Below, piece after piece: positions 1 through 30,755 of a stretch of 32,745 bases of DNA. Below the pieces are notes generated by a model. The model did not search any database. It was not told the origin of the DNA and saw nothing but the letters and a program-made list of their open reading frames with translations. Positions within the stretch are counted from its first letter, which is position 1. The number at the start of each line of letters is the position of its first letter. The DNA is from a virus. Taxonomy: Duplodnaviria > Heunggongvirae > Uroviricota > Caudoviricetes. The translations under genes and the position numbers were made by a program. The stretch lies in IMG/VR virus record IMGVR_UViG_2531839479_000007; one strand, 5' to 3'.

Positions 1-852
1 CTAGGATATCTTTCCATGACATTCTTTGAAGCGTTTTCCACTCCCGCAATGACATAAGGCATTTCTTGACATAGATTGTGGTGGACTCAAGTCAATTTCG
101 CTAAGCATCGAAAGTAATTCCTCTGCTGCAATTGCTTCTCCAATCATAACTTGAGTTAGACTTCTCATATGAATCAATAATTCTGCTACAATTTGAGATT
201 CTACAAAACTTTTAGTTTCTCCAGCGTCATTAGTAGCGGTATAGGTGACGCCACTCATATTTTCAGACAAAGCTTCAATAGCTGATTGATGGTATTGACT
301 GATAGGAGCATGCTTACTCACTACAATACCTATTACTTTATTATCTGAAGCTTTTAAAAGAGCTCCACCAGAATTTCCTGAGTTAAATGCCCCATTTACC
401 ACTAGATGTTTTTTTTGTCCCTTGGCGGTTTGGTATGAGTTAAATCCTGCTAGATAACCAACGGATAGTAACGGTGCAGGACCGTTGTATCCTAATGGGT
501 ATCCCCAAGTTGTTACTGATTCACCAACTTTAAGATCATTATCCTTAACAATACTTAGCCCACCAGTCTGGGTAATGGCAGGTCTCAGCACAGCTAAATC
601 GCGATCAGAATCTATCCATTTTTGAGAAATTGGAATCTTCTGTCCATAAGCTGAAATTGCGAAAATCTGATTTGTAGAGCATCCAGTGATAACATGCTCG
701 TTCGTTACTATTAACCCATTATCTATTAAAAAACCAGATCCTTTCGAGCCTGTCGCAGGACATATAATCATATAAACAGAATTTACTGATGAGCGTCCAA
801 CTTCACCCGTAGCGTCTAAAGTCCATTGAGTAGATATGGGGATATTGTTCAA
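1..852 (-). CDS. Trypsin-like (S1 family) serine protease with C-terminal SEC-C metal-binding motif; flanking gene outside the prophage
   Basis: 283-aa ORF; His/Asp/Ser triad contexts TNEHV, DLAVL, GNSGGAL; C-terminal CHCGSGKRFKECHGK matches the SEC-C motif; TTG start at 850-852 with AAGGAG 8 nt upstream; TAG stop at 1-3; visibly AT-rich. Confidence 0.6.
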   Translation of the reverse strand: MNNIPISTQWTLDATGEVGRSSVNSVYMIICPATGSKGSGFLIDNGLIVTNEHVITGCSTNQIFAISAYGQKIPISQKWIDSDRDLAVLRPAITQTGGLSIVKDNDLKVGESVTTWGYPLGYNGPAPLLSVGYLAGFNSYQTAKGQKKHLVVNGAFNSGNSGGALLKASDNKVIGIVVSKHAPISQYHQSAIEALSENMSGVTYTATNDAGETKSFVESQIVAELLIHMRSLTQVMIGEAIAAEELLSMLSEIDLSPPQSMSRNALCHCGSGKRFKECHGKIS

Positions 853-1010
853 AACTGACTCCTTTATTTATAAACTTTTGTTAAATGGCTTGCAGTCTTA
901 TATTCGTTATTTATAAAAATTTAATTAGCTAGTTTATTTTTTGCCCCCCCAAAAATTTCTCAATTGATTCTCAGTTAATCCAATATGCAATTGCTGTCAT
1001 GGATATATAT

Positions 1011-1024
1011 CCTTCTTATTTTTA
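1011..1024. other. Putative left prophage junction (attL core-like CTTATTTTT); position approximate
   Basis: ccttCTTATTTTTa shares CTTATTTTT with the right-end core; composition turns GC-richer just to the right; a second weaker candidate TTTATTTTTT lies at 943-952. Confidence 0.25.
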
Positions 1025-1120
1025 AGGAATTTTACACATATAACTAACGTTAGTCACTCTCTAGAACCCGCTCCTGGCACTTTGCCGACGGAAATGTACT
1101 TAACATAACTGATCTAAAAG

Positions 1121-1148
1121 TTGCAAAAAGCCCCGCATTCGCGGGGCT
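1121..1148 (-). terminator. Intrinsic terminator downstream of ogr
   Basis: Stem AGCCCCGC / loop ATTC / GCGGGGCT at 1129-1148, followed on the minus strand by TTTT (plus 1125-1128); a T-rich run also follows on the plus strand, so possibly bidirectional. Confidence 0.55.
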
Positions 1149-1158
1149 TTCTCGTTTG

Positions 1159-1380
1159 TCACATCCAGTGAATTTGTTGCTGACCTGATGATGTCGGATG
1201 CGGCGGCGCGGGGACTACTTCCCCCGGCGACACGATAAAACGCTCGACTGTTTCAGTGGTCACAAACGTGCAGCTGCAGTTAATGTTTGTGCACTGGTGA
1301 TACCGCTCTTTTGTGGTATCAGTAAAATAGCGACTCGTGCGGGCGTGGGCGGCATGATGGCATTTCGGACAATGAAACAT
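1159..1380 (-). CDS. ogr: Ogr, zinc-finger late-gene transcription activator
   Basis: MFHCPKCHHAAHARTSRYFTDTTKERYHQC... closely matches P2 Ogr; CxxC...CxxC zinc finger; ATG at 1378-1380 with GGAG upstream; ORF-track start at 1404 is TTG. Confidence 0.9.
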   Translation of the reverse strand: MFHCPKCHHAAHARTSRYFTDTTKERYHQCTNINCSCTFVTTETVERFIVSPGEVVPAPPHPTSSGQQQIHWM

Positions 1381-1460
1381 GATGAGGGTCTCCGGCGTAT
1401 TCAATGTGTTAATTTTACTAATTTTTACTTATAAAACAAACACATAAACAACACACGCCG

Positions 1461-2624
1461 TTAAACTTCCTCGCTTTCATACTCCACATCAGAAACCTTA
1501 ACCTCAAGCTCTAAGCCCGTCGTGAAGCCGCTCCCGTTGAGGCTGTGTACCACACGACTGATTATCCACGCCTGCTCGTCTATAACGCGCTTAAAGCCTT
1601 TCACTGCCACCGGCGTTTCAGGAAATAAATCAGCGCGGCCAGTGGCGAGCGTGATCGAAAACTCCGCCACCCCACGCTGTATCCTGTCCCACTTTGCCTG
1701 AGCTGCGCGCATGGCCTGCGCCTTTGTCGCGTAGATGGTCGTGAGTTCCAGAACATTGTCGGACTCACCGGCCATATACTCACCTTCCCGCGCTTCCTGC
1801 ACCTTCTTCTTTTTAGCCTTTGCCGATGTTTTAGCAACCTTCGGGTGCTGCAGCGCACGCAGGTGCTGCTCTTTGGGTTTGCGCTTGAGCTTCACCTTTT
1901 GCTTTTGCGGTTTCGGGTCTCTGGTGTGCAGCCATTTAGCGGTTACGCCGGAGTATGCCTCGCGGTCGGCTATGGCAAACTGATGCCGGTCGCCGTCGCC
2001 GCGTTCGACGGTCATTTGCGGGATGGCCTTACCACTGGCCGTCATCGCGCTACCGGCTTTCAGGAATAACAATTTCCCGGCCTTGACCGAAACCGTTGCC
2101 CCGTTGCGATCCGCCAGTCGGGACAAAAACGCCGCGTCGGATTCCTGAGACTGGTCAATATGCGGCACAGCAACAGCTTTCAGGGTATCAGCCACGCTGG
2201 CCGTCAGTTTGTTACGCTGCGCGATAGTCTCGACAATCACCCCGAGCGTGGTGTCGTGCCATGACTGCTCGCGGCGCGAGTTCAGCGTCCCGCGAAAATC
2301 CGCACTGCGTCCCCGGATAGTCAGCCTGTCAGGCGCGCCCCGGTGCTCGATTTCGTCAACCGTAAAACTCCCTTTGTTAATCAGCGCCGAGCCCTGCCAG
2401 CCCAGCCACAGGGTCAGCGATGCCCCGCGCGGCGGCAACTCGACCAGTCCATCGGTATCATCGAGCTCGATATCAAGCTGGTCAGCCTCGAATCCGCGAT
2501 TGTCGGTCATGGTCAGCCCGATAAGCCGGTCGCTGAAATTCTGTGTGATATCTGCGCCACCGAGCGTGAGCATAAAATCAGGAGCAATGCGCGCCCCGGC
2601 CTGAATAGTCATTCCCGTTATCAT
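1461..2624 (-). CDS. D: Tail protein D (late control gene D)
   Basis: 387 aa, same length as P2 gpD; ATG overlaps U stop (ATGA at 2621-2624); synteny. Confidence 0.9.
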   Translation of the reverse strand: MITGMTIQAGARIAPDFMLTLGGADITQNFSDRLIGLTMTDNRGFEADQLDIELDDTDGLVELPPRGASLTLWLGWQGSALINKGSFTVDEIEHRGAPDRLTIRGRSADFRGTLNSRREQSWHDTTLGVIVETIAQRNKLTASVADTLKAVAVPHIDQSQESDAAFLSRLADRNGATVSVKAGKLLFLKAGSAMTASGKAIPQMTVERGDGDRHQFAIADREAYSGVTAKWLHTRDPKPQKQKVKLKRKPKEQHLRALQHPKVAKTSAKAKKKKVQEAREGEYMAGESDNVLELTTIYATKAQAMRAAQAKWDRIQRGVAEFSITLATGRADLFPETPVAVKGFKRVIDEQAWIISRVVHSLNGSGFTTGLELEVKVSDVEYESEEV

Positions 2625-10719: not shown

Positions 10720-11620
10720 CGTTGCCCCCGATATTTACGCTGTACGCAGTGCAATATGACGCCTGCGTCTCATTGAGTACGATGTCAGCGACCGGCGCGA
10801 CAAGTTCGACACGCTGCACGCCCTCGACGTGAAGCGCGGCATAGATGGCAGACTTGCGGATGTCACGCCCGAGCCGGTGCTGCGCGCTGATATAGGTCTG
10901 CAGCTTCGCTTTTGCCGCACTGAGCACCGGCTCGCTTTCGGGGCCGGGATAAAGATAAAGCGCGGCATCGATGGTGTAGTCGACAATGACCGCCGACTGC
11001 ACGGTCACGCGGTCAGCAACCGGCCTCACATCCTCATCGTTCAGCGCATTACGCACCACGGCGAGCAGCTCCCCGGATGCCGCGCCGTTATTCTCCCGGG
11101 ACAGTACCGACACGGTCACGCAGGCAGGTTCCGGGCTGATAACAGAAATATCGGCGACCCGCCCGTCAGCGCTGCGGCCATGAAACTGATACGCACCGGT
11201 CGACCCGGCCACGCTCATTCCTTCAAAGGCCTGTTGAATACGCAGACGGTAATCGGTGTCCGACTCCATCACAGCAGGTGTCGGCGGCAGCGTGGTTTCA
11301 TCAGCAGGCGTAATAACGAGACGTTCAACGTTGTAATTTGCGCCGATATTGTCGAGGTCGTTTGCGGCAGCACAGGCCAGCATCACCGCCCGTGCCGACT
11401 CATTCACCCGCTGACGCCAGATAACCTCCCGATACGCATTTTCCTGCAGCAGCTTAACAATCGGCTCAGATTCAAGCGTCAGCGTGCGCGCGACCGCGTC
11501 CTGTTGCTCTTCGGGATACAGCGAGACAAGCGTCGCTTTTCGCTCTGTCAGGATGGTTTCATAATCCAGCTCTTCCACAACATCAGGTGCGGCGAGCTGG
11601 CTCAGGTCAACAATAGCCAT
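10712..11620 (-). CDS. J: Baseplate assembly protein J
   Basis: 302 aa, same length as P2 gpJ; ATG at 11618-11620. Confidence 0.9.
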   Translation of the reverse strand: MAIVDLSQLAAPDVVEELDYETILTERKATLVSLYPEEQQDAVARTLTLESEPIVKLLQENAYREVIWRQRVNESARAVMLACAAANDLDNIGANYNVERLVITPADETTLPPTPAVMESDTDYRLRIQQAFEGMSVAGSTGAYQFHGRSADGRVADISVISPEPACVTVSVLSRENNGAASGELLAVVRNALNDEDVRPVADRVTVQSAVIVDYTIDAALYLYPGPESEPVLSAAKAKLQTYISAQHRLGRDIRKSAIYAALHVEGVQRVELVAPVADIVLNETQASYCTAYSVNIGGNDE

Positions 11621-13045: not shown

Positions 13046-14032
13046 TTATGGATTTGACTTCCCTGAAGTCTCTTTTTTTATTTCAAATTTCCCACCCTTG
13101 AACATGATATTCGAATCTTTGATTCCATACAAAAGCATTTCATAAGGATGGTTAATTTTTTGTTCTTTTGTAGCGATACTGGAATTCATCAATTGCAACA
13201 AAGCCACATGATGTTCACTCGCCCCTAACTCTACCATTTTGGTAGCCATGTTGCTTATCTGTTCTCGTTTTAAAAAATCTTCCCGGAGAGAAAGTAACGT
13301 TAAACTTCGTGCGTTACAAAACTTTATCATGTAAACAACAAACGCACCTAACCCAATATAGGAAAACGATAATGCTAAATAAATAGACGGTGTGGTTATT
13401 ATGTTTTGCCCAAATATAAGAAAACCCAGCAGGCCAAAAAAATAAAAAACATTCACCAAAATAAACATGTTACTCATCAGAGCCTTTGTACTTCGAGTTG
13501 CATCATATTCTTTCTCCAGATGCTCCAAAAATGATGATATTTTTATTAAATTTAACTTTTCAATTGTTTCCTTCTCTAAAATCTTGAATTGCTCACTCTC
13601 TCTAATTAATTTTTTGGTAGTGTCCTCCACTGTATCATGCAATGATTCAGTGATCGCCTCTTCAATTTTATTTTCAGAAAACACGCTTGTTAAAGCGTAA
13701 TTGGCTAATTCCTTTTGTCTTTTCTCGATTAAACTTTCGACATTTTCTCTGTACGCATCAAAATATTTTTGACCACTCTCGTTTAGCAATATTTTACGAA
13801 TATGAAATTTTATTTTCTCATCTGCCATTGGTTGGCTTTCAGTGTTACCATTCTTCTTTGTGTTATTATCTTTAGTTTCCGCATTATACCTGTCCTTGCC
13901 TGAATCAAGTAAGTTCCGTGAAATGAATTTCACCACAGGACCACGCAGAATAGCTATAGCTATTGCCATTGCAAGAATGAATGGTGAAGCATCAATAAAT
14001 GATCGCGCAAATACGAAAGAGATTTCACTCAT
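13046..14032 (-). CDS. AT-rich moron: predicted membrane protein of unknown function (N-terminal TM helix, charged central region, two further TM helices, soluble C-terminal domain)
   Basis: Start set at ATG 14030-14032 (AGGGA 8 nt upstream); hydrophobic stretches SPFILAMAIAIAIL, MFILVNVFYFFGLLGFLIFG, IYLALSFSYIGLGAFVVYMIKF; sharp drop in GC relative to V and S on either side. Confidence 0.6.
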   Translation of the reverse strand: MSEISFVFARSFIDASPFILAMAIAIAILRGPVVKFISRNLLDSGKDRYNAETKDNNTKKNGNTESQPMADEKIKFHIRKILLNESGQKYFDAYRENVESLIEKRQKELANYALTSVFSENKIEEAITESLHDTVEDTTKKLIRESEQFKILEKETIEKLNLIKISSFLEHLEKEYDATRSTKALMSNMFILVNVFYFFGLLGFLIFGQNIITTPSIYLALSFSYIGLGAFVVYMIKFCNARSLTLLSLREDFLKREQISNMATKMVELGASEHHVALLQLMNSSIATKEQKINHPYEMLLYGIKDSNIMFKGGKFEIKKETSGKSNP

Positions 14033-20018: not shown

Positions 20019-20184
20019 TGTTCAGGTGTCCTGATATTGGGTTTTCGGTTCGGGGGTAGTTTCCCGACTCCGCCCCGCATCAGCCACCGCTTGCGGAAGT
20101 GCAACCCCTGACACAACAGGGGGTTAGCGATAATGCCCGGCTATTTCCTTAGCCTTGCCCCGTATTCACCAGTACGAGGCAACC

Positions 20185-21954
20185 ATGACCATTTCGACTG
20201 ACCTCTCCCTTTTGCATGACCCGCGACGACAGGCGCGGCTGTTGTTCTGGCAGGGATTTTCCGTACCACAAATCGCCGACACACTGCAGGTAAAGCGCCC
20301 GACCGTGCAGAGCTGGAAACAGCGCGACGGGTGGGAGGAAACCGCCCCGCTTAATCGCGTGGAAACGACGCTCGAGGCGCGCCTGATCCAGCTTTATGCA
20401 AAGCCTGACCTGACGCCGCATGACTTCAAGGTCGCTGATTTTCTGTCACGCCAGATGGAGCGATTCGCACGCATCAACCGCTACGGCCAGACCGGTAATG
20501 AAGTGGATTTAAACCCCAACATTGCGAGCCGCAATAAAGGGGATCGCAAAAAGCCGAAACGCAATTATTTCAGCGACGAGGCCATCGAAAAGCTGGAAGA
20601 GATTTTCTTCGATCAGTCCTTTGAGTATCAGCTCAACTGGCACAAGGCCGGTATCGCGCACCGTATTCGCCACATCCTCAAATCACGCCAGATTGGCGCG
20701 ACGTTCTACTTTGCGCGTGAGTCCCTCCTGCGTGCGCTTAAGACCGGGCAAAACCAGATATTTTTGTCAGCCAGTAAGACGCAGGCTTACGTGTTCCGAA
20801 AGTACATCATCGCCTTTGCGCGCATGGTCGACGTCGACCTGTCAGGAGACCCGATTGTCATCGGCAACAACGGCGCAGAGCTGATTTTTCTCGGGACAAA
20901 CTCAAACACTGCGCAGAGCCATAACGGCGACCTGTATGTCGATGAAATCTTCTGGATCCCCAACTTTCAGAAGCTGCGCAAAGTCGCCTCGGGGATGGCG
21001 TCGCAGTCCCACCTGCGCACCACCTACTTTTCAACACCCTCAACGCTGGCACATGGCGCGTATCCGTTCTGGTCAGGTGAACTGTTTAACCGGGGACGCA
21101 GCAACGCGAGCGAGCGCGTCGACATCGATATCAGCCACAAAGCGCTCGCCGGTGGCGTGCTGTGCCCGGACGGCCAGTGGCGGCAGATTGTCACCATCGA
21201 GGACGCACTCGCCGGGGGATGCACCCTGTTTAATCTGGATCAGCTGAAACAGGAAAACAGCGCCGACGATTTTCGCAACCTCTTCATGTGCGAGTTTGTT
21301 GACGATAAAGCGTCGGTATTCCCGTTCGAGGAGCTACAGCGCTGCATGGTCGATGCGATGGAAGAATGGGAGGACTTTGCGCCGTTCTCTGACCGTCCGT
21401 TTAACTGGCGCCCGGTCTGGATTGGCTATGACCCGTCGCACACCGGCGACAGCGCTGGCTGTGCGGTACTGGCTCCACCACTGGTTCCCGGTGGCAAGTT
21501 CCGCATCCTTGAGCGTCACCAGTGGAAAGGGATGGATTTTGCGACGCAGGCCGAGGCTATCCGCGAGCTGACCGGGAAATATTGCGTCGAGTACATCGGC
21601 ATCGATGCGACCGGCATCGGCCAGGGGGTTTACCAGCTCGTGCGCTCCTTCTTCCCGGCGGCGCGTGCCATTCGCTACACGCCGGAAATGAAAACTGCGA
21701 TGGTGCTGAAAGCGAAAGACACCATCCGTCGCGGATGTCTGGAATATGACGCCGGTGCGACCGACATCACACAGTCATTTATGGCTATCCGTAAAGCCAT
21801 GACCAGCAGCGGGCGCAGCTCCACCTATGAGGCCAGCCGCAGCGAAGAGGCCAGCCACGCGGATATTGCGTGGGCGACCATGCACGCCCTGTTAAACGAA
21901 CCGCTTTCCGCCGGTAGCGGCATGCAATCAACCTCAATTCTGGATATTAACTAA
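20185..21954 (+). CDS. P: Terminase large (ATPase) subunit P
   Basis: Start set at MTISTDLSLLHDPRR (ATG 20185, GAGG 6 nt upstream); 589 aa, gpP-like. Confidence 0.9.
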   Translation: MTISTDLSLLHDPRRQARLLFWQGFSVPQIADTLQVKRPTVQSWKQRDGWEETAPLNRVETTLEARLIQLYAKPDLTPHDFKVADFLSRQMERFARINRYGQTGNEVDLNPNIASRNKGDRKKPKRNYFSDEAIEKLEEIFFDQSFEYQLNWHKAGIAHRIRHILKSRQIGATFYFARESLLRALKTGQNQIFLSASKTQAYVFRKYIIAFARMVDVDLSGDPIVIGNNGAELIFLGTNSNTAQSHNGDLYVDEIFWIPNFQKLRKVASGMASQSHLRTTYFSTPSTLAHGAYPFWSGELFNRGRSNASERVDIDISHKALAGGVLCPDGQWRQIVTIEDALAGGCTLFNLDQLKQENSADDFRNLFMCEFVDDKASVFPFEELQRCMVDAMEEWEDFAPFSDRPFNWRPVWIGYDPSHTGDSAGCAVLAPPLVPGGKFRILERHQWKGMDFATQAEAIRELTGKYCVEYIGIDATGIGQGVYQLVRSFFPAARAIRYTPEMKTAMVLKAKDTIRRGCLEYDAGATDITQSFMAIRKAMTSSGRSSTYEASRSEEASHADIAWATMHALLNEPLSAGSGMQSTSILDIN

Positions 21955-21955
21955 G

Positions 21956-22963
21956 ATGAAAAAACGACAAAAGAAACCCGCCAACATGACCGCCAGCACA
22001 CCGCAAAAAATGGAGGCGTTCACCTTTGGTGTGCCTTCCCCGGTTCTGGATCGCCGCGACATTCTCGACTACGTAGAGTGTATCAATAACGGGAAATGGT
22101 ACGAGCCGCCGGTCAACTTCTCGGGGCTGGCAAAAAGCCTGCGCGCCTCCGTTCATCACAGCTCGCCGATTTACGTGAAACGTAACATTCTGGCGAGCAC
22201 CTACATTCCGCACCCGTTGCTGTCACGTCAGGACTTCAGCCGCCTGGTGCTCGATTATCTGGTCTTTGCCAACGGCTATCTTGAGAAGCGCATGAGCGTC
22301 ACCGGCCAGCTCTTAAAACTGGAAACCTCACCGGCTAAATACACCCGCCGGGGTGTCGAAGATGGCGTTTACTGGTACGTGTCGAACTACACCCAGCCGC
22401 ACCCGTTCGCACCCGATTCCGTTTTCCATCTGCTTGAGCCCGATATCAATCAGGAGTTGTACGGGATGCCGGAATACCTGAGCGCACTTAATTCTGCCTG
22501 GCTGAATGAGTCCGCTACGCTGTTTCGCCGCAAGTATTACCAGAACGGCGCGCACGCGGGGTACATCATGTACGTCACCGACGCCGCGCAAAGCAGTACC
22601 GACGTCGAGTCGCTCCGCAACGCGATGCGTGACTCGAAAGGACTCGGGAATTTCAAAAACTTGTTTTTCTACGCGCCCAACGGCAAACCGGATGGCATCA
22701 AGATTGTGCCGTTGAGTGAAGTCGCCACGAAAGATGATTTTTTCAATATCAAAAAGGTTAGTGCAGAAGATTTGTTGAGTGCTCATAGGGTACCACCACA
22801 AATGATGGGAATTATGCCTAACAATGTTGGCGGTTTTGGTGATGTTGTAAAAGCTGCACAAGTGTTTGTCCGAAATGAGTTAACTCCTTTACAGGAACGG
22901 TTCAAAGAACTAAACAACTGGTTAGAAATGGAAGTTATAAGATTTAAAAAATATTCACTTTGA
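21956..22963 (+). CDS. Q: Portal protein Q; last ~75 codons are AT-rich (mosaic 3' end)
   Basis: 335 aa, gpQ-like; ATG at 21956 one base after the P stop; composition drops from about 22735 onward. Confidence 0.9.
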   Translation: MKKRQKKPANMTASTPQKMEAFTFGVPSPVLDRRDILDYVECINNGKWYEPPVNFSGLAKSLRASVHHSSPIYVKRNILASTYIPHPLLSRQDFSRLVLDYLVFANGYLEKRMSVTGQLLKLETSPAKYTRRGVEDGVYWYVSNYTQPHPFAPDSVFHLLEPDINQELYGMPEYLSALNSAWLNESATLFRRKYYQNGAHAGYIMYVTDAAQSSTDVESLRNAMRDSKGLGNFKNLFFYAPNGKPDGIKIVPLSEVATKDDFFNIKKVSAEDLLSAHRVPPQMMGIMPNNVGGFGDVVKAAQVFVRNELTPLQERFKELNNWLEMEVIRFKKYSL

Positions 22964-23026
22964 TTTTCAAAATAAACATCTCAACATTATATTCAGCCCT
23001 GTAACTCAAGAACCACAGATAATAAC

Positions 23027-23055
23027 ATCACAGCCCACTTTATCGGGGCTGTGAT
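23027..23055. terminator. Perfect 10-bp inverted repeat between convergent Q and the cargo operon (candidate bidirectional terminator or structured element)
   Basis: ATCACAGCCC / 9-nt loop / GGGCTGTGAT; 64 nt after the Q stop and 4 nt before the cargo stop codon; no clear U-tract on either strand. Confidence 0.35.
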
Positions 23056-23058
23056 AAT

Positions 23059-24171
23059 TTAACCAACCCTTGCTTTTTTATATGGACCACAACTCCAACT
23101 AAAGAAATTCTTACCTAACTTATACCATTTATCAGAAAGCACTGGTGTTAGGTGAGGATTATATTTTTTTAAACTTCCCTTTTGTATATATTTCAATGTA
23201 TTGCTGAGCAAATTCTCTCCAAAACCATCATAACTTACACAAGCAGCGTTGCAGCTACAACGTTTTGATTCGATATACTCACAATCATATTTTATATCAA
23301 GCTTCTTTAATATCGGACGCCAATATGCACCATGTTTTCGATCGAGTTCAAGGGCTGTTTTAAAATCAAAACCTTTTTTATGGTCAATATAAAATTTTAC
23401 TGATTCATCTACGGAGCAAAGATGCTTAAAGAAAATGAGAGATTTTTCTTTTTGTTGCAATTGACTTTGACTTCTTAATACATCTTCAATTGTCGATAAA
23501 GGAACTAGAGATTCTATTTCATGTACATCTAAAATCTCCACGAAACCTGAGCGAGTAATTTGTGAGCCCAAAAAATGTGAGCAAGTACCTCCGAATGGGG
23601 CTCCAGGATGTTTTTTGTCATTATCCACAATACAAAAAACTATCTCATTATTTTGAATTGCACGCTCGAATATATCCTTAGTACTGCCCCCACCGCCATT
23701 TAGAGCGATAAAACCCATTTCGCAGCGAGATAAGTTAATACCTTCGGCATAATGAGCCGCTATAACCTTAAAAAAATCAGAATCCAAAGGATTTTCACAT
23801 ACTATTTTCGTTTTTTGCAATTGTGCCGAGTCATTAAAATACAATGGACCACAAACAAATTTAAAAGATTCACCGATCTGAACCCATTTAAATGATTTAT
23901 CACTAATATTAAAGTCGACAGATACATAAAATGAGACCTGATCCAAGATAGCATAGTACTCTGTTAGACCCGACAAAGCCTCTTGCGCGTAACTTTTTGA
24001 TGAAAGGCTATAAAGCCCGCTTTGATCATTGATAATAGTTTTAAAAAAAACCCTTGCCCCTATAACCAAGTGTTTTTGTTCAGCGAATGCCCGAAGTATA
24101 TTTTCAACCGCTATGGCAAATGAGTTATTTAGCACCTTCTCAGGTGTCGCATTTTCGATATTAATCAACAT
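23059..24171 (-). CDS. Cargo gene 2: 370-aa partner protein of the ATPase, unknown function (possible Toprim-like E...DxD core; Cys-rich C-terminus)
   Basis: ATG at 24169-24171 only 2 nt after the ATPase TAG stop; AT-rich; ...RCEMGFIALNGGGGS...IVFCIVDNDKK... could be Toprim-like; C-terminal CEYIESKRCSCNAAC cluster. Confidence 0.6.
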   Translation of the reverse strand: MLINIENATPEKVLNNSFAIAVENILRAFAEQKHLVIGARVFFKTIINDQSGLYSLSSKSYAQEALSGLTEYYAILDQVSFYVSVDFNISDKSFKWVQIGESFKFVCGPLYFNDSAQLQKTKIVCENPLDSDFFKVIAAHYAEGINLSRCEMGFIALNGGGGSTKDIFERAIQNNEIVFCIVDNDKKHPGAPFGGTCSHFLGSQITRSGFVEILDVHEIESLVPLSTIEDVLRSQSQLQQKEKSLIFFKHLCSVDESVKFYIDHKKGFDFKTALELDRKHGAYWRPILKKLDIKYDCEYIESKRCSCNAACVSYDGFGENLLSNTLKYIQKGSLKKYNPHLTPVLSDKWYKLGKNFFSWSCGPYKKARVG

Positions 24172-24173
24172 AA

Positions 24174-25730
24174 CTACTTACCCGAGAAAAAGCCAACCGG
24201 CCAATTTTTTAGGAAACCATTCTCGTCAAAATAAGATTTCTTAACTATAGTCTGCTGCTTATCATCTTTTTCAAATACCAGTATTGAAATATCATCCTGT
24301 GAAAGACTTTCATTTTCCTCAATATATTCACCAAGTGCTTCAATCATGGTCTGGCTATGTGTCTCAAAAATTATCTTCAAATCTACATTATTTTCTTTTG
24401 CTTTAGTTACTACTTTTGCAAAAATACTTGCTAAATTATGCTGATATGACGGATGTAAATGCAATTCTGGCTGCTCAATGATAAATGTTATAGGTTTTCT
24501 AACCGTGGTAGCACGACGTTCTGTCTCAAGCCAAATGGCTGTAACTATCGGCAAAACCTGAGAATAACCAAACCCCATATCACTAACATTATAGTTCTCA
24601 CTATTTTCACCGGTGTTTATTAAAATTGCAAAGTGAGAGCCACTTTGTTCAACCTTGATAATGAAATCAAAATTTAACTTTGTCCAATCTTCAAATTTTG
24701 ATTTATCAGCCGGTCTTAATGAATTCAAAAGCATTGCAAGATTGGAACCAGTATGATCTATCTCATTAACCTGTAAATCTTGAAAACGATAAAATCTTTC
24801 TGATGTAGCACGCAGTGGAGCTATGTACTTTACATTTCTGAATGAATCTGACAAGGATGTATTTATTATATCTATAAGATTATTAATATTCCATCCAATT
24901 ATAAATGGATATAACTCATTCATTATTTCATCATGTTGAAATTCAAAGTTTCTACTAAAAACTTTTTGTTCCTTAAATAGAAAAGCAACTAATTTACTAG
25001 CGTACGCTTTGGGTATAAAGCCAATTCTTTTGAATGCCTCTGTCACTTGATTTATATCAGATTTAGTATGGAAATATTTCTTTATATATTTCGCCGCTGA
25101 ATCAATAAATGACAATTCTAACGCCCTGTCATGCCTAGAATGTCTCAAATAGAATGATGTGCTTGGAGGAGGACTGTCTTCCTTACCCTTCAAAATTAGA
25201 TTTGGTATGAACTGCCCAAGATTTTTAGCTATTATCCCATCACGCTCTATTGTTTTATCATCTGATTCAATGAGTAATTTAACATTACTACTCTCATCCA
25301 TTGAAATAAATATTGTTAAATCAGCCAATATAAGCTTAATCGTTTTCGTTTTTGTTTTTTTATCTTTAGAGTAAACAGTTAACTCTGCTTCAATATCTGT
25401 TGGTTGCTTTGCTAAATCAGTAGAACGATAATATGTATATCTTTGTGAAACCTCTGGCGGAATTGAGAGTGAAAAACTAAACGTAATTTCTTTTTTTTCA
25501 GAGTTTCGGGAAAGTACATCTGTAAAATCGCCAAAATCCACATATCTCCCATACCATAGTATTGGGCCAGTAGTATTTTCTTCTACAGATTGACGAAGTA
25601 AAGGAAATGTGCGCAATAGGGAACTTTTACCACTGCTGTTCTTACCAACAAATACTGTAATTGGTTTTAAATCAATAAACGTTTTGTTGACAAAGCTCCT
25701 GAAGTTTTGAAGACCTATACCCTTAATCAT
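24174..25730 (-). CDS. Cargo gene 1: ABC/OLD-family (AAA_15/AAA_21-like) ATPase without a C-terminal Toprim domain
   Basis: Start set at MIKGIGLQNFRSF (ATG 25728-25730, GGAG 6 nt upstream); Walker A GKNSSGKSS, Walker B/D-loop ITFIIEQPELHLHP, H-loop IIFETHS; ORF-track start at 25802 is TTG inside the cos-like sequence. Confidence 0.75.
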   Translation of the reverse strand: MIKGIGLQNFRSFVNKTFIDLKPITVFVGKNSSGKSSLLRTFPLLRQSVEENTTGPILWYGRYVDFGDFTDVLSRNSEKKEITFSFSLSIPPEVSQRYTYYRSTDLAKQPTDIEAELTVYSKDKKTKTKTIKLILADLTIFISMDESSNVKLLIESDDKTIERDGIIAKNLGQFIPNLILKGKEDSPPPSTSFYLRHSRHDRALELSFIDSAAKYIKKYFHTKSDINQVTEAFKRIGFIPKAYASKLVAFLFKEQKVFSRNFEFQHDEIMNELYPFIIGWNINNLIDIINTSLSDSFRNVKYIAPLRATSERFYRFQDLQVNEIDHTGSNLAMLLNSLRPADKSKFEDWTKLNFDFIIKVEQSGSHFAILINTGENSENYNVSDMGFGYSQVLPIVTAIWLETERRATTVRKPITFIIEQPELHLHPSYQHNLASIFAKVVTKAKENNVDLKIIFETHSQTMIEALGEYIEENESLSQDDISILVFEKDDKQQTIVKKSYFDENGFLKNWPVGFFSGK

Positions 25731-25801
25731 TCCTAGCTCCATTAGTTCAATAAAATCAATCGATTTTGAGACAATCTTAATATCTTTGACAGGCGCGCGC
25801 A

Positions 25802-25820
25802 ATGCTTACCCCGCCTCGCC
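25802..25820. other. cos-like site (19-nt cohesive-end sequence)
   Basis: Minus strand reads GGCGAGGCGGGGTAAGCAT, 17/19 identical to the P2 cohesive end as I recall it (GGCGAGGCGGGGAAAGCAC). Confidence 0.55.
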
Positions 25821-26102
25821 TGCCCGCTTTATGGGTCGTTTTTAATGCAGTTGCATGACCACTCTGGATCCGCGCCTGCTCTGGCGGCGCGCGGCCAGAA
25901 CAGGCATCCCCAACGTATGCAAAAAAATGCACCTGTTGCATGCACGGCTAAAAAACCGGGAAATTGTGGGAAAATTGCATAATAAAACCGACTTTAATCG
26001 TGCCGGTTGGGGGTGGTCTCTACGGTGCAGGCTAACGTCTCGCGGGGCTCGTTGCTCAACACCGCTGGCACTGAAAACAAGTTTCAGCACCGGCGGCGTT
26101 TG

Positions 26103-26342
26103 CTATGGTCGACGCGGTGGTGGCTTTGCCATATTTGGTGGCCGAAACGCCTCAATTTTCGGATTGCTGATATCGCTGTATTTGCGGTGATTATCCCGGA
26201 CGACACCGGCACACCCGACCAGTTCGTCAGGGGTCAGATTCTCGTTAATCATAATTTGTTGCAGGCGATGTACGACGGCCATCAGCTTAATGTTTTGCGT
26301 TGAATGTATCGGCGGCACTGGCATCATTCGCATATGACTCAT
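26103..26342 (-). CDS. Small hypothetical protein (79 aa) coupled to the DUF3850-like gene
   Basis: ATG at 26340-26342 overlaps the upstream TGA (ATGA); MSHMRMMPVPPIHSTQNIKLMAVVHRLQQ...; no recognisable family; ORF-track start at 26351 is GTG. Confidence 0.35.
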   Translation of the reverse strand: MSHMRMMPVPPIHSTQNIKLMAVVHRLQQIMINENLTPDELVGCAGVVRDNHRKYSDISNPKIEAFRPPNMAKPPPRRP

Positions 26343-26803
26343 TTTAACCACCCATTTTTTTTAGCATCTGCGACCAACTTGTCGGAATATTGCCAGACAC
26401 CATCATCAGCGATGTAAGCCCTACCAGAAACGCTGTTAAGTGTTTCATATCTAATAGCCAGCCCTAACGGGTGTAGAATTTCGTGATTAACTCTGAAAAC
26501 AAGCCCCTTCTCGCTTAACTCTTTCCAGTTCATTAGGGACATACCGCACTGGACATCTGGCATCATTAACTGAAAACTCAGCATCACATAATTTTCCGCC
26601 CATTCAGATAAATCCGTAACGTTTGTCACCCTCACTGATACACGTTTCCCGGTATATCTGTTTACCGGTTCCCATTCATGCAACCCGAGAATATCACCGC
26701 TAGAATAATCGCGGTCATTGAGACGAAATTCAGCACGTTTTTCCTGAGATATCACAGAGTTAAAATACTCAGGTGCAATTTTTAACTCATGGATTTTGCT
26801 CAT
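26339..26803 (-). CDS. DUF3850-like (ASCH/PUA-like) domain protein with ~75-aa C-terminal extension; accessory gene coupled to A
   Basis: Start set at MSKIHELKIAPEYFNSVISQEKRAEFRLNDRDYSSGDILGLHEW (ATG 26801-26803 overlapping the A stop, TAATG); motif resembles DUF3850 as I recall it; lower GC than A. Confidence 0.55.
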   Translation of the reverse strand: MSKIHELKIAPEYFNSVISQEKRAEFRLNDRDYSSGDILGLHEWEPVNRYTGKRVSVRVTNVTDLSEWAENYVMLSFQLMMPDVQCGMSLMNWKELSEKGLVFRVNHEILHPLGLAIRYETLNSVSGRAYIADDGVWQYSDKLVADAKKNGWLK

Positions 26804-29094
26804 TAATTCTGCTCCTCTTGAATTGAGAATCCCGGCCACTCATCAGCAGCCGCGTATTTGATTTTTTTATCGCCATAAATCACCGTTGCCCCACGCGCCA
26901 GCGCTTCGAGCGCCCACCGTTCCGGGGTAATGCCCTCCTGAGCCAAATCGAAACGAATTTTCGCCACGCGATCCCTTTCTGGTTTTGTCATCCTGGCTGA
27001 TGGAGCTTGCTCGCTCGTTTTGAGTGGCGCATTGCTTCTTTGCTGGCGATTATTGCGAGGTGCGCCAGCTTTTAACGCGCCGTTAAGAACCTTCATGACG
27101 TCTGGCTCATTCCAGCCGATAACCCCGGCCTCAATCAGATTTAACACCGCTGCGGCTTGCTCAGACGGTGTAGGTGTCATAACTGGATCGCCACCGTCGG
27201 CAAGCTTTCCACAGTTATTGACAGGACTCCGAGGCGCGGCAGAGCCGCTTTTTAAGGTCAAAGGCTCAACGGCCAAAACCTTTGGAACTATGCGCCATTC
27301 CGCTGTACGGGTTACATGTACGCGGCTCACCCCAAGATGAGGGGCATAAATACCGACCACTTTCTCGATATCCTCCTCGTATTCGTTTACCTCATCCGTC
27401 ACCTTACGGGCGACCCTGACCGCCTGAGCATCACGCGGCATGTTTGCCCCACCCTGCGCGCTGATGTACAGGTCAAATTCCCCCTCATCTGCAGCAGCCC
27501 GGACGGCCTCGACACGGTCGTCAAACTCGCTGGCGATACTCACCCCGCGCGGCAGCTTACGCAGTTCGCGGTAAGCGCCCATTGTCGGGAGGCCAATCGG
27601 TTTAAACTGAGGGATACGCCATGTAGACGCCCATGCGGTTACGGCTGCGGCCGTATCTTTCAGAGATTTGCCGGTATCGTGATCGAGCTGACCGTCAAGC
27701 GCGTAGCCGTCGATATTTTTGGCAATGTATTTGGCGATATAACCCGCCGCGCCCCCCTGATTAAGGTGACGCGACTCAAAGCGCTGTTTTGCCGCGCCCT
27801 TTTCGTGTCCGTCCTCTTTGAGGGCATAACGACGCATAATTTCGTTGATAGCTTTACGCTGACTGAGTTTGCAAAAAAGCATCATATGCCAGTGTGGCGT
27901 GCCGTCGTGGTGCGGCTCGACAACGCGCATCCCATACACTTCCAAATCGTTATCTTTGAAAGCGGTACGCATCAGGCTCCAGATTCGGCACAGATAGCGC
28001 TGGCCGTTTTTAGGGGTGAATGCGGTTTCGTTCCAGCCGTGATTGAGCTGCACCGTTTTGCTGTCACCTTTGCCGACCTGTCGGGTCGGGTGATACTTCG
28101 ACGGCGTGGTCAGCGTGATAAACATTCCCACATCACCAACGCTGGCCGCATAGCGTTCAATTCCGGCAATGGTGTTCATCAGCTCCATACGGCGTATTTC
28201 AGGGTTTGAAATACTCCCCATGACTTTACTGATGAGGTCGATACGTTCGCCGGTAACTTTGTTTTCCAGCTCACAGGATTTCAGGTATTCGAGATTAGCC
28301 AGCCGGCGCGAGTGAACCTCGCGGATCGCCATTTTGCTGGCGTAAGGTGAACGGTCTTTGTTGACTTCACCGGCAGCGATAAGCAGCGCCTCGCGCCAGC
28401 GCATACGCTGCGCCTTGAGCTGGTTAACCCACCAATCATCTTTTATCAGACGGGAAATAGCGGAAAACGCCATGCGGATCGTCATCTGACCCTTACGGTA
28501 TTTTTTCCAGTAGAGCGGGGTTAAGTTGAACGCGCGTGCAACACCAGCCACCTGACCATATATGTGCACCTGCGCCTCATCGGTGAAAAGGGTCTCTTTA
28601 CCGCCGAATGCCTCAGCCCATTCGTCGCTGAGTTCCTCGTATTTACGCCAGAGCTGCGCGGCAATTCTGGCCGCAAATTTTTTCAGCTCTTTGTCATTCA
28701 TATCAGGCAAGCGCGCATATTCGTCACGCTCAGACAAGAAACCAATCGACGCAGATTCATTCATCCCGCACAGCTCGTTAACGCGCTCAAGACGCGGCAA
28801 CAGCTTCCGCTCAAAGGTGTTTTTCAGGAAATAGAGCGCCCCGGGCGGGCTCTTTGTGCGACGAATGAAGTTATAACGGGAAGTAAACAACGTCTTAAGA
28901 AAGAAAGGCAGGCGGTCAATCCGGTATAAAACACCTTGCACCTGACGGAATTCGGCACGTGTAAGGGGTCTGTCACGGCCAATGGCAGCGCGGGGAGCAT
29001 TCCAGGGATAAGCACCAACGAAAGTATCGCCGGTGCGCTTAGATATTGGCAGGGCTAGCGAGGGGGCAATACGCCCCCGAGTCTCAACGGCCAT
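26803..29094 (-). CDS. A: Replication initiation protein A (rolling-circle nickase)
   Basis: Start set at MAVETRGRIAPSL (ATG 29092-29094); 763 aa; extensive identity to P2 gpA as I recall it, including ...VVEPHHDGTPHWHMMLFC... Confidence 0.9.
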   Translation of the reverse strand: MAVETRGRIAPSLALPISKRTGDTFVGAYPWNAPRAAIGRDRPLTRAEFRQVQGVLYRIDRLPFFLKTLFTSRYNFIRRTKSPPGALYFLKNTFERKLLPRLERVNELCGMNESASIGFLSERDEYARLPDMNDKELKKFAARIAAQLWRKYEELSDEWAEAFGGKETLFTDEAQVHIYGQVAGVARAFNLTPLYWKKYRKGQMTIRMAFSAISRLIKDDWWVNQLKAQRMRWREALLIAAGEVNKDRSPYASKMAIREVHSRRLANLEYLKSCELENKVTGERIDLISKVMGSISNPEIRRMELMNTIAGIERYAASVGDVGMFITLTTPSKYHPTRQVGKGDSKTVQLNHGWNETAFTPKNGQRYLCRIWSLMRTAFKDNDLEVYGMRVVEPHHDGTPHWHMMLFCKLSQRKAINEIMRRYALKEDGHEKGAAKQRFESRHLNQGGAAGYIAKYIAKNIDGYALDGQLDHDTGKSLKDTAAAVTAWASTWRIPQFKPIGLPTMGAYRELRKLPRGVSIASEFDDRVEAVRAAADEGEFDLYISAQGGANMPRDAQAVRVARKVTDEVNEYEEDIEKVVGIYAPHLGVSRVHVTRTAEWRIVPKVLAVEPLTLKSGSAAPRSPVNNCGKLADGGDPVMTPTPSEQAAAVLNLIEAGVIGWNEPDVMKVLNGALKAGAPRNNRQQRSNAPLKTSEQAPSARMTKPERDRVAKIRFDLAQEGITPERWALEALARGATVIYGDKKIKYAAADEWPGFSIQEEQN

Positions 29095-29359
29095 CAGCAC
29101 AAAACGCGGTCTGACATTGCAGTCCCAACTGCTCGACCTGCTCACCCAACGCCGCAAAACTATCAGCACCGCCATTTAAAAGGTCATGTAGCACCAGACC
29201 AGAAATCAGTTTTTGAATCGTCGGGTAATCCCCGACAGTATCAAGCCATTCGCTACCTTTATTTTTTCCAGCAGTCGCCACTTTCTTTTCCTGCAAAATG
29301 AACTGGTAGCGATCGCTTGTAACTACATACTGATGATTTATCTCGATACGGATACTCAT
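29084..29359 (-). CDS. Hypothetical early protein (91 aa), P2 orf82/83-like position
   Basis: ATG at 29357-29359 with AAGGAG 6 nt upstream; TGA at 29084-29086 just before the A start. Confidence 0.6.
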   Translation of the reverse strand: MSIRIEINHQYVVTSDRYQFILQEKKVATAGKNKGSEWLDTVGDYPTIQKLISGLVLHDLLNGGADSFAALGEQVEQLGLQCQTAFCADGR

Positions 29360-30334: not shown

Positions 30335-30344
30335 TTCTGGCTCC

Positions 30345-30620
30345 TTATGCTGGTTCACCTAATCCCAACCACATCAACCAACCATCCCGAATTTCTTTAG
30401 GGCGACTGTCATAGGCCATCTTCATGCCTTTGTTCCATGCTGGCAGATATACCCAGTATTCCCCTGCTCTCCCACTTGTAGACTGCGGATCAGTCATCTC
30501 AACTATCGGTAGTTTGCCTTTCTCAATCATCCCTTTGACAGCAGCAGGGGTTTTACCAATAAGACGCGCAAACTCCTGATACGGAACCGCGTCGCTCGCG
30601 CTCTCAATGACCCTATTCAT
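30345..30620 (-). CDS. cox: Cox (excisionase / lytic-lysogenic switch protein)
   Basis: 91 aa; ...PYQEFARLIGK...DPQSTSGRAGEYWVYLPAWN...SRPKEIRDGWLMWLGLGEP closely matches P2 Cox as I recall it. Confidence 0.9.
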   Translation of the reverse strand: MNRVIESASDAVPYQEFARLIGKTPAAVKGMIEKGKLPIVEMTDPQSTSGRAGEYWVYLPAWNKGMKMAYDSRPKEIRDGWLMWLGLGEPA

Positions 30621-30755
30621 TTGTGACTATTCCTCGTTAGTGTTTTAATTGCTCCTAATGGCTTTTAATTGCCATATTGGAGCCATAAATCTGCGGTAAC
30701 GAAGCGAAGACTACTCCGTTATCGTTTTTCTATCAATAGTGGAGTGTTAATTACG
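30621..30755. promoter_or_regulatory. Divergent early (Pe) / repressor (Pc) promoter region with direct-repeat operator half-sites
   Basis: Intergenic between divergent cox and C; direct repeats TTTTAATTGC at 30643-30652 and 30663-30672, 20 bp apart, consistent with a P2-type C operator. Confidence 0.5.

Follow-up and report, generated by a model that had tools for sequence, protein, structure and literature searches.

Results and Discussion

A Predicted P2/186-Type Cohesive End Lies Beyond the Cargo

The 19-nt sequence at positions 25802-25820 (minus strand) of the 32,745-nucleotide stretch of DNA analyzed here (the window) is very probably the genuine P2/186-family cos site of a 186-like (P2-family) prophage of Escherichia coli, and two cargo genes separate it from the portal gene Q. 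The arrangement has been known since 1996 and is frequent among relatives; it is real but ordinary. We assign the site on three independent lines of evidence: the ends of related phage records, the conservation of the flanking bases and the occurrence of a single such site in related loci.

The prophage belongs to the P2 family and lies reversed relative to the P2 map. On the plus strand, the gene for the terminase large subunit (20155-21954; Terminase_6N, 3e-59, with Terminase_6C and Terminase_5), a gpP homologue and the expected cos-cutting enzyme, precedes Q (21956-22963; 335 aa, Phage_portal). The minus strand carries the replication initiator gene A (26803-29175; Phage_GPA, 6e-109) and, directly after it, a DUF3850/ASCH gene (26339-26803; DUF3850, 2e-18) that is the counterpart of P2 orf91, whose product is likewise a DUF3850 protein. 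Between this gene and the putative cos are a small hypothetical ORF of 76 aa annotated by PGAP (26103-26333, minus strand), which had no family match in profile searches, and a non-coding region resembling the right end of phage 186 (25821-26102, minus strand). Identical or near-identical copies of the region 22900-26400 are present, with the same layout, in 39 complete E. coli chromosomes.

The plus strand at 25802-25820 reads atgcttaccccgcctcgcc, the reverse complement of which, GGCGAGGCGGGGTAAGCAT, is the predicted 5' overhang of the virion DNA. It contains the cohesive-end motif GGCGNGGCGGGGNAAGCAN of P2/186/P4-type cos sites. Its resemblance to the P2 cohesive end, proposed in an earlier note on this DNA, was borne out: GGCGAGGCGGGGTAAGCAT matches the P2 end (GGCGAGGCGGGGAAAGCAC) in 17 of 19 bases, with two differences, and the phage 186 end (GGCGTGGCGGGGAAAGCAT) also in 17 of 19, the substitutions relative to 186 being A5 and T13. 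This was the only match with up to 3 mismatches in the 32.7-kb window, against a chance expectation of 0.02 (the mean number of matches in dinucleotide-preserving shuffles), and a 26-mer scan with a tolerance of 6 mismatches detected neither a second cos nor a remnant of one in the window.

The 19-mer sits within an intact 55-bp core (25795-25849, minus strand) composed of a 29-bp A-side flank (TGCATTAAAAACGACCCATAAAGCGGGCA), the 19-mer itself and a 7-bp Q-side flank, TGCGCGC. A core of this length common to P2 and P4 is attributed to Ziermann and Calendar (1990) in the account given in PMC5694545. The core of the window is identical to that of 186 in 51 of 55 positions, to that of P2 in 48 and to that of P4 in 47. 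Aligning the window with the circularised P2 and 186 junctions, the comparison that the earlier note had proposed, revealed conservation of both the A-side flank (TGCATTAAAA.CG.CCC....AAG.GGGC.) and the Q-side TGCGCGC. A small hairpin with a T-run behind it (GCCCGCTTTATGGGT CGTTTTTAAT; 25822-25836, plus strand) can also form in the A-side flank of the core; it was flagged by the terminator scan and may be no more than a by-product of the conserved core sequence.

The ends of related phage records place the site at the same base. A BLAST search of positions 25700-26400 against phage genomes aligned 25821-26102 to positions 30342-30624 of 186 (85.5% identity over 282 bp), and for 186, PSP3, EtG and SEN1 alike the alignment extended to the final base of the linear record, which corresponds to base 25821 of the window. 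This base adjoins the 19-mer, and homology to the right ends of the four phages breaks off there. Bases 1-19 of the 186 record are annotated as the cohesive end, and the P2 record carries annotated cohesive ends as well. The same site recurs in bacterial loci that encode a relative of the portal protein of the window: of 80 such loci, each from a different bacterial species, 77 have a single such 19-mer in the Q-A interval, without exception in the same orientation, and the 19-mer of the window lies between A and Q in the orientation of its relatives. Two loci from Yersinia alsatica and Y. frederiksenii (L064 and L067) contain both genes, Q and A, and lack a 19-mer with 2 or fewer mismatches to the motif, which suggests that this lineage has a divergent cos variant. 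Phage 186 (Eganvirus) is the closest model for the site, with the same position between A and Q, the same orientation, the 29-bp right flank and the TGCGCGC left flank; it differs in having a left spacer of ~176 bp and the tW terminator, both missing from the window, where cargo is found instead.

Cargo Occupies the Interval Between Q and cos

The distance from the Q stop (22963) to cos is 2838 bp, in agreement with the 2.8 kb given in the earlier note, and is occupied by two AT-rich cargo genes. The corresponding gap is 176 bp in 186 and 167 bp in P2 (Q stop at 187, cos at 1-19), where it contains the tQ terminator; the earlier note's figure of about 100 bp for P2 is corrected here. On the opposite side, the 982 bp between cos and the A stop hold only the DUF3850 gene, the 76-aa ORF and 282 bp of 186-like right-end DNA, much as the earlier note had described, and the P2 record confirms that old and tin of P2 lie on that other, A side of cos. 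Going by the P2 map, which is all that speaks for it, one might expect the true cos to be beside Q and the 19-mer to be a chance resemblance. This reading is effectively refuted by the expectation of only 0.02 matches, the conservation of the 36 flanking bases, the break in phage right-end homology at the 19-mer and the lack of a second site or remnant throughout the window, the 95 bp that follow Q included.

The two cargo genes lie on the minus strand, reading away from cos and convergent with Q. The first (24174-25730, PGAP coordinates) encodes a 518-aa ABC-type ATPase (AAA_15, 4e-27, and AAA_21) with a DUF3696 tail (4e-7) that resembles NsnB and AriA. Its ORF can be extended to a TTG (24174-25802, minus strand), which the earlier note had placed inside the cos-like sequence; the overlap exists but is limited to the final base of the 19-mer. 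In the long ORF, the matches to Pfam AAA_15 and PADLOC NsnB both start from residue 25, an AGGA motif lies directly upstream of the ATG at 25730, and the RefSeq PGAP annotation starts at this same codon. The ATPase start is, then, the ATG at 25730, as already favored in the earlier note, which had pointed to the ATG 72 bp further in. The AT-rich spacer of 64 bp between the cos core and this ATG (25731-25794, minus strand) includes the ribosome-binding site GGAGCTAGGA and presumably carries the cargo promoter; a scan of the minus strand between cos and the ATG found no consensus sigma-70 promoter. The cos-to-ATG spacing is the same in a P2-like copy from Cronobacter (counted as 65 there).

The second cargo gene (23059-24171, minus strand) encodes a 370-aa partner with a predicted OLD-type Toprim nuclease fold and a cysteine-rich C-terminal part. 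Beyond it, a hairpin at 23026-23056 (-19.5 kcal/mol on the minus strand, -17.8 kcal/mol on the plus strand) lies between the convergent cargo operon and Q. The region after Q has no homology to the 186 or P2 terminators, so that tW/tQ is missing, and the hairpin is a probable bidirectional terminator in place of the canonical one. On the A side, a t95b-like intrinsic terminator (~25978-26007, minus strand; fold -11.2 kcal/mol), t95b being annotated at positions 30436-30463 of 186, should halt A-side transcription ahead of cos. The same region contains a GC-rich palindrome (~25869-25906; consensus CGCCAG..CTGGCGCGG) that can form a hairpin of -34.3 kcal/mol (~25873-25906) ~50-85 bp to the A side of the cohesive end. 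The palindrome is conserved in 186-like loci whether or not they have cargo on the Q side, but is lacking in P2; it may serve as a terminator or as an additional site for the terminase.

The Cargo Resembles a Split OLD/PARIS-Like Pair

The ATPase scored best against the PADLOC model for NsnB (5e-55), followed by PDC-M55A (7.5e-46) and AriA (7e-31). NsnB has the architecture of an ABC ATPase with DUF3696 and belongs to Menshen, a system of three genes that include the ParB/DUF262 sensor NsnA (PMC12065111). We considered Menshen (NsnABC) because NsnB was the best match for the ATPase, and rejected it: the region 23059-25730 contains two genes only, with no NsnA and no DUF262 match, and the 370-aa partner is not an inPIN effector. 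The comparison with PARIS (AriA/AriB) is mixed. The ATPase matches the AriA model, though less well than the NsnB model, and the partner has a predicted fold of the OLD/AriB Toprim type with no sequence match to DUF4435. For the two genes as a pair, the best PADLOC match is PDC-M55, an untested candidate system.

Profile searches found no Pfam domain in the partner, which belongs to a small unannotated family from mostly Enterobacterales. The family has invariant acidic motifs (E126, D130, D183-x-D185, D215 and H217-E218-x-E220) and a conserved cluster of cysteines (C299, C305, C307 and C311). Its structure is predicted with a pLDDT of 90, and the best matches of the predicted fold are OLD-type Toprim nucleases and AriB. 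On the strength of this model, the cargo reads as a split OLD/PARIS-like pair composed of an ABC ATPase and a putative Toprim nuclease, for which a role in defence would be expected.

The Q Side of cos Is a Regular Cargo Slot

Comparing the side of cos that carries cargo across many P2-like loci, as the earlier note had suggested, showed that both sides are used and that the Q side is common in 186-like loci. The distance from the Q stop to cos was bimodal in 77 species-level loci (median 178 bp, longest 3962 bp): 42 had the canonical distance (<250 bp), 31 had at least 900 bp and 4 were intermediate. Among the 79 IMG/VR loci closest to the Q of the window, 61 were canonical, 7 intermediate and 11 had at least 900 bp. 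A further 79 loci with a Q ~99% identical to P2 gpQ included 77 canonical and 2 with Q-side cargo, a sample that selects for a P2-identical 3' end of Q and may under-count swaps that replace that end. The share of loci with Q-side cargo is, therefore, ~40% of the species-level 186-like loci, 14% of the close viral relatives and 2.5% of the P2-proper loci. The Q side is a regular slot that is little used in P2 proper and common in 186-like and other Enterobacterales lineages, and the novelty that the earlier note implied for it does not stand: the slot was already published and is frequent in the survey.

The A-side interval had a median length of 1435 bp in loci with Q-side cargo vs. 2546 bp in those without, and many loci were loaded on both sides. 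Other Q-side slots carry known defence systems, namely Avs5 (L018), Lamassu LmuA/LmuB (L061 and L077), Olokun OloA/OloB (L080) and a GmrSD-type protein (L152). The ORFs of at least 90 aa in these other slots read mostly from cos towards Q (51 of 64), as do those of the window. One Enterobacteriaceae prophage (L008) was the sole surveyed locus with a cos remnant at the canonical distance from Q (11089-11114). The remnant consists of GCGCGCA and the first 11 nt of the 19-mer (with one mismatch) and is divergent thereafter, and the complete cos is located 2.4 kb further on (13515-13540), past cargo of the opposite reading direction. It looks like the scar of an insertion within cos.

Several known systems have a comparable layout. 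Retrons Ec67 and Ec86, inserted in a 186-related prophage, take the place of ~180 bp between its cos and the terminator of its portal gene (Dodd and Egan, 1996, as relayed in PMC6868368). As in the window, a 186-type E. coli prophage has kept its cos intact, and foreign defence cargo has displaced the DNA that separates this site from the portal gene; the cargo is a retron rather than an ATPase/Toprim pair, and the retrons stop at the packaging-gene terminator, whereas the swap in the window also takes the terminator and the last ~228 nt of Q. The Pseudomonas phage phiCTX (NC_003278) has cosL at 1-21, a promoter, ctx at 362-1222 (plus strand), two terminators and Q at 1417-2469 (minus strand). 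The order is that of the window, with cosL followed by cargo that points away from it, then terminators and a portal gene in convergent orientation. The ends of phiCTX have been mapped; it differs in its 21-nt cohesive end, its host, its toxin cargo and the repeats R4-R6, which reach ~200 bp to the left of cos. In P2-like phages of Ralstonia, extra ORFs have been described between cosL and the gpQ homologue (Askora et al., 2017; PMC5694545).

The interval between gpA and gpQ, "adjacent to the cos site," is also a recognized defence hotspot, described from 18,150 E. coli loci (Rousset et al., 2022; PMC9122126). The cargo of the window occupies this same A-Q interval beside cos, which holds anti-phage cargo, and is even OLD-like in its combination of an ABC ATPase and a predicted Toprim domain. 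The old and tin genes of P2 are, however, on the A side of cos, whereas the cargo of the window is on the Q side, with the OLD-like functions split over two proteins.

The Portal Gene Is a Mosaic

The GC content falls from ~0.55 in the phage genes to 0.26-0.40 from ~22700 on, with ~0.33 in the cargo, and the drop begins inside Q. Over its first 780 nt, Q shares 86-89% identity with three Enterobacter-type loci (L005, L006 and L015). The 3' end (~228 nt; 22736-22963) is AT-rich (GC 0.26-0.41), at most 67% identical to the same three loci and 73-75% identical to loci of the PPQMMG type. Because its AT-rich 3' end is of another lineage, Q is a mosaic, with the swap boundary inside the gene and not after the terminator. 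A clean exchange of the stretch from cos to the terminator, of the kind that Dodd and Egan described, does not fit, since the change extends to the terminator itself and to the 3' end of Q. Given the mosaic Q, the absence of tW/tQ and the presence of a replacement hairpin, the most likely origin of the module is a recombination event between P2-like phages in which the crossovers fell within Q on one side and at the cos core, or close to it, on the other. The allele of the Q C-terminus (PPQMMG vs. PFQLMG) was associated with Q-side cargo (20 of 29 vs. 7 of 39), an association that is confounded by lineage and that we, therefore, set aside as mechanistic evidence.

Conservation Around cos and a Proposed Packaging Model

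In an alignment of 78 cos regions, the conserved block comprised the 19-mer with ~36 bp of A-side flank and just 7 bp (TGCGCGC) of Q-side flank. The core was equally conserved in canonical loci and in those with Q-side cargo, and the Q-side limit fell at 7 bp in both. Past TGCGCGC, there was no conservation at all in loci with Q-side cargo; canonical loci had weak extra conservation over ~15 bp, which could reflect relatedness alone or an auxiliary element missing in the window. P4, which is packaged by P2 proteins, has only 7 bp ([T/C]GCGCGC; CGCGCGC in P4) in common with P2 on the Q side. From this comparison we infer that recognition by the terminase would need nothing further to the left of the 7-bp flank, and the spacer could, therefore, be freely replaced without harm to packaging. 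In the model that we propose, the terminase (the small subunit and the gpP homologue encoded at 20155-21954) would recognize the core and introduce nicks 19 nt apart. The virion DNA would then start with GGCGAGGCGGGGTAAGCAT-TGCGCGC, with the ATPase gene of the cargo 64 bp further on, and its other end would be at base 25821. The cargo would fill the left-end slot that is normally taken by the ~170-bp spacer between cos and the portal-gene terminator.

An alternative that we consider improbable is that the cos core is intact while the prophage is defective or poorly packaged, an auxiliary packaging or expression element having been lost when all that lay left of TGCGCGC, the portal terminator and the 3' end of Q included, was exchanged, so that the site is now a relic in a domesticated defence island. 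The mosaic Q is compatible with such a history, as are the ~15 bp of conservation past TGCGCGC that canonical loci have and loci with Q-side cargo lack, and the cargo was found in no isolated phage of the phage collection. Yet 31 of the 77 species-level loci repeat the arrangement with the core intact in each, and phiCTX, a viable phage, has it too. The P2 machinery packages P4 despite a common Q-side sequence of just 7 bp, and none of the P2-type terminase, portal and A genes is missing from the window. A cos that is still serviceable, with cargo in a replaceable spacer, is the reading that we prefer.

Related Cargo in P4-Like Satellites

Relatives of both cargo genes (72-81% amino acid identity for the ATPase, 56-71% for the partner) were found in three contexts. 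P4-like satellites of Pectobacterium and Pantoea and of an unassigned metagenomic contig (L167-L169, L175 and L176/L177) carry them between psu/delta and int, 181-243 bp past the satellite cos on its TGCGCGC side and reading away from it. A Cronobacter P2-like prophage (L178/L179) has the order A, cos, cargo and Q, as in the window, and chromosomal islands of Klebsiella aerogenes and Providencia (L170-L174) have the cargo without a cos. Wherever the cargo is linked to a cos, it occupies the TGCGCGC side and is directed away from the site. The gop, beta and cII genes of P4 are on the same side of cos as the cargo of the window. In satellites and window alike, the cargo is on one and the same side of cos, starts just past the [T/C]GCGCGC flank and is directed away from the site; the two differ in the far boundary, which is int in the satellites and Q in the window, and in the distance from cos to the ATG (181-243 bp vs. 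64 bp).

The ATPase of the window is 77-81% identical to the satellite copies vs. 73% to the Cronobacter copy, the only other P2-borne copy found. In a 2026 study, defence genes with >85% identity were reported to be almost never shared between P4 and P2 (PMC13586616). Such a cut-off misses older exchanges, and the sharing of cargo described here would, therefore, be older than the threshold detects. A tentative interpretation of these sequence comparisons is that the Q-side slot is the positional homologue of the P4-satellite hotspot, and that the shared cos core might serve as a common anchor for the exchange of defence modules between helper phages and satellites.

The finding overturns nothing and opens no long-standing question; its value is in annotation. 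The 7-bp conservation on the left provides a precise limit by which cargo can be delimited and cos-based packaging vectors designed, and it helps gene prediction to avoid a start inside cos for the first cargo gene. The A-Q defence hotspot of P2/186-like prophages in fact consists of two slots, one on either side of the 55-bp cos core, whose use depends on the lineage.
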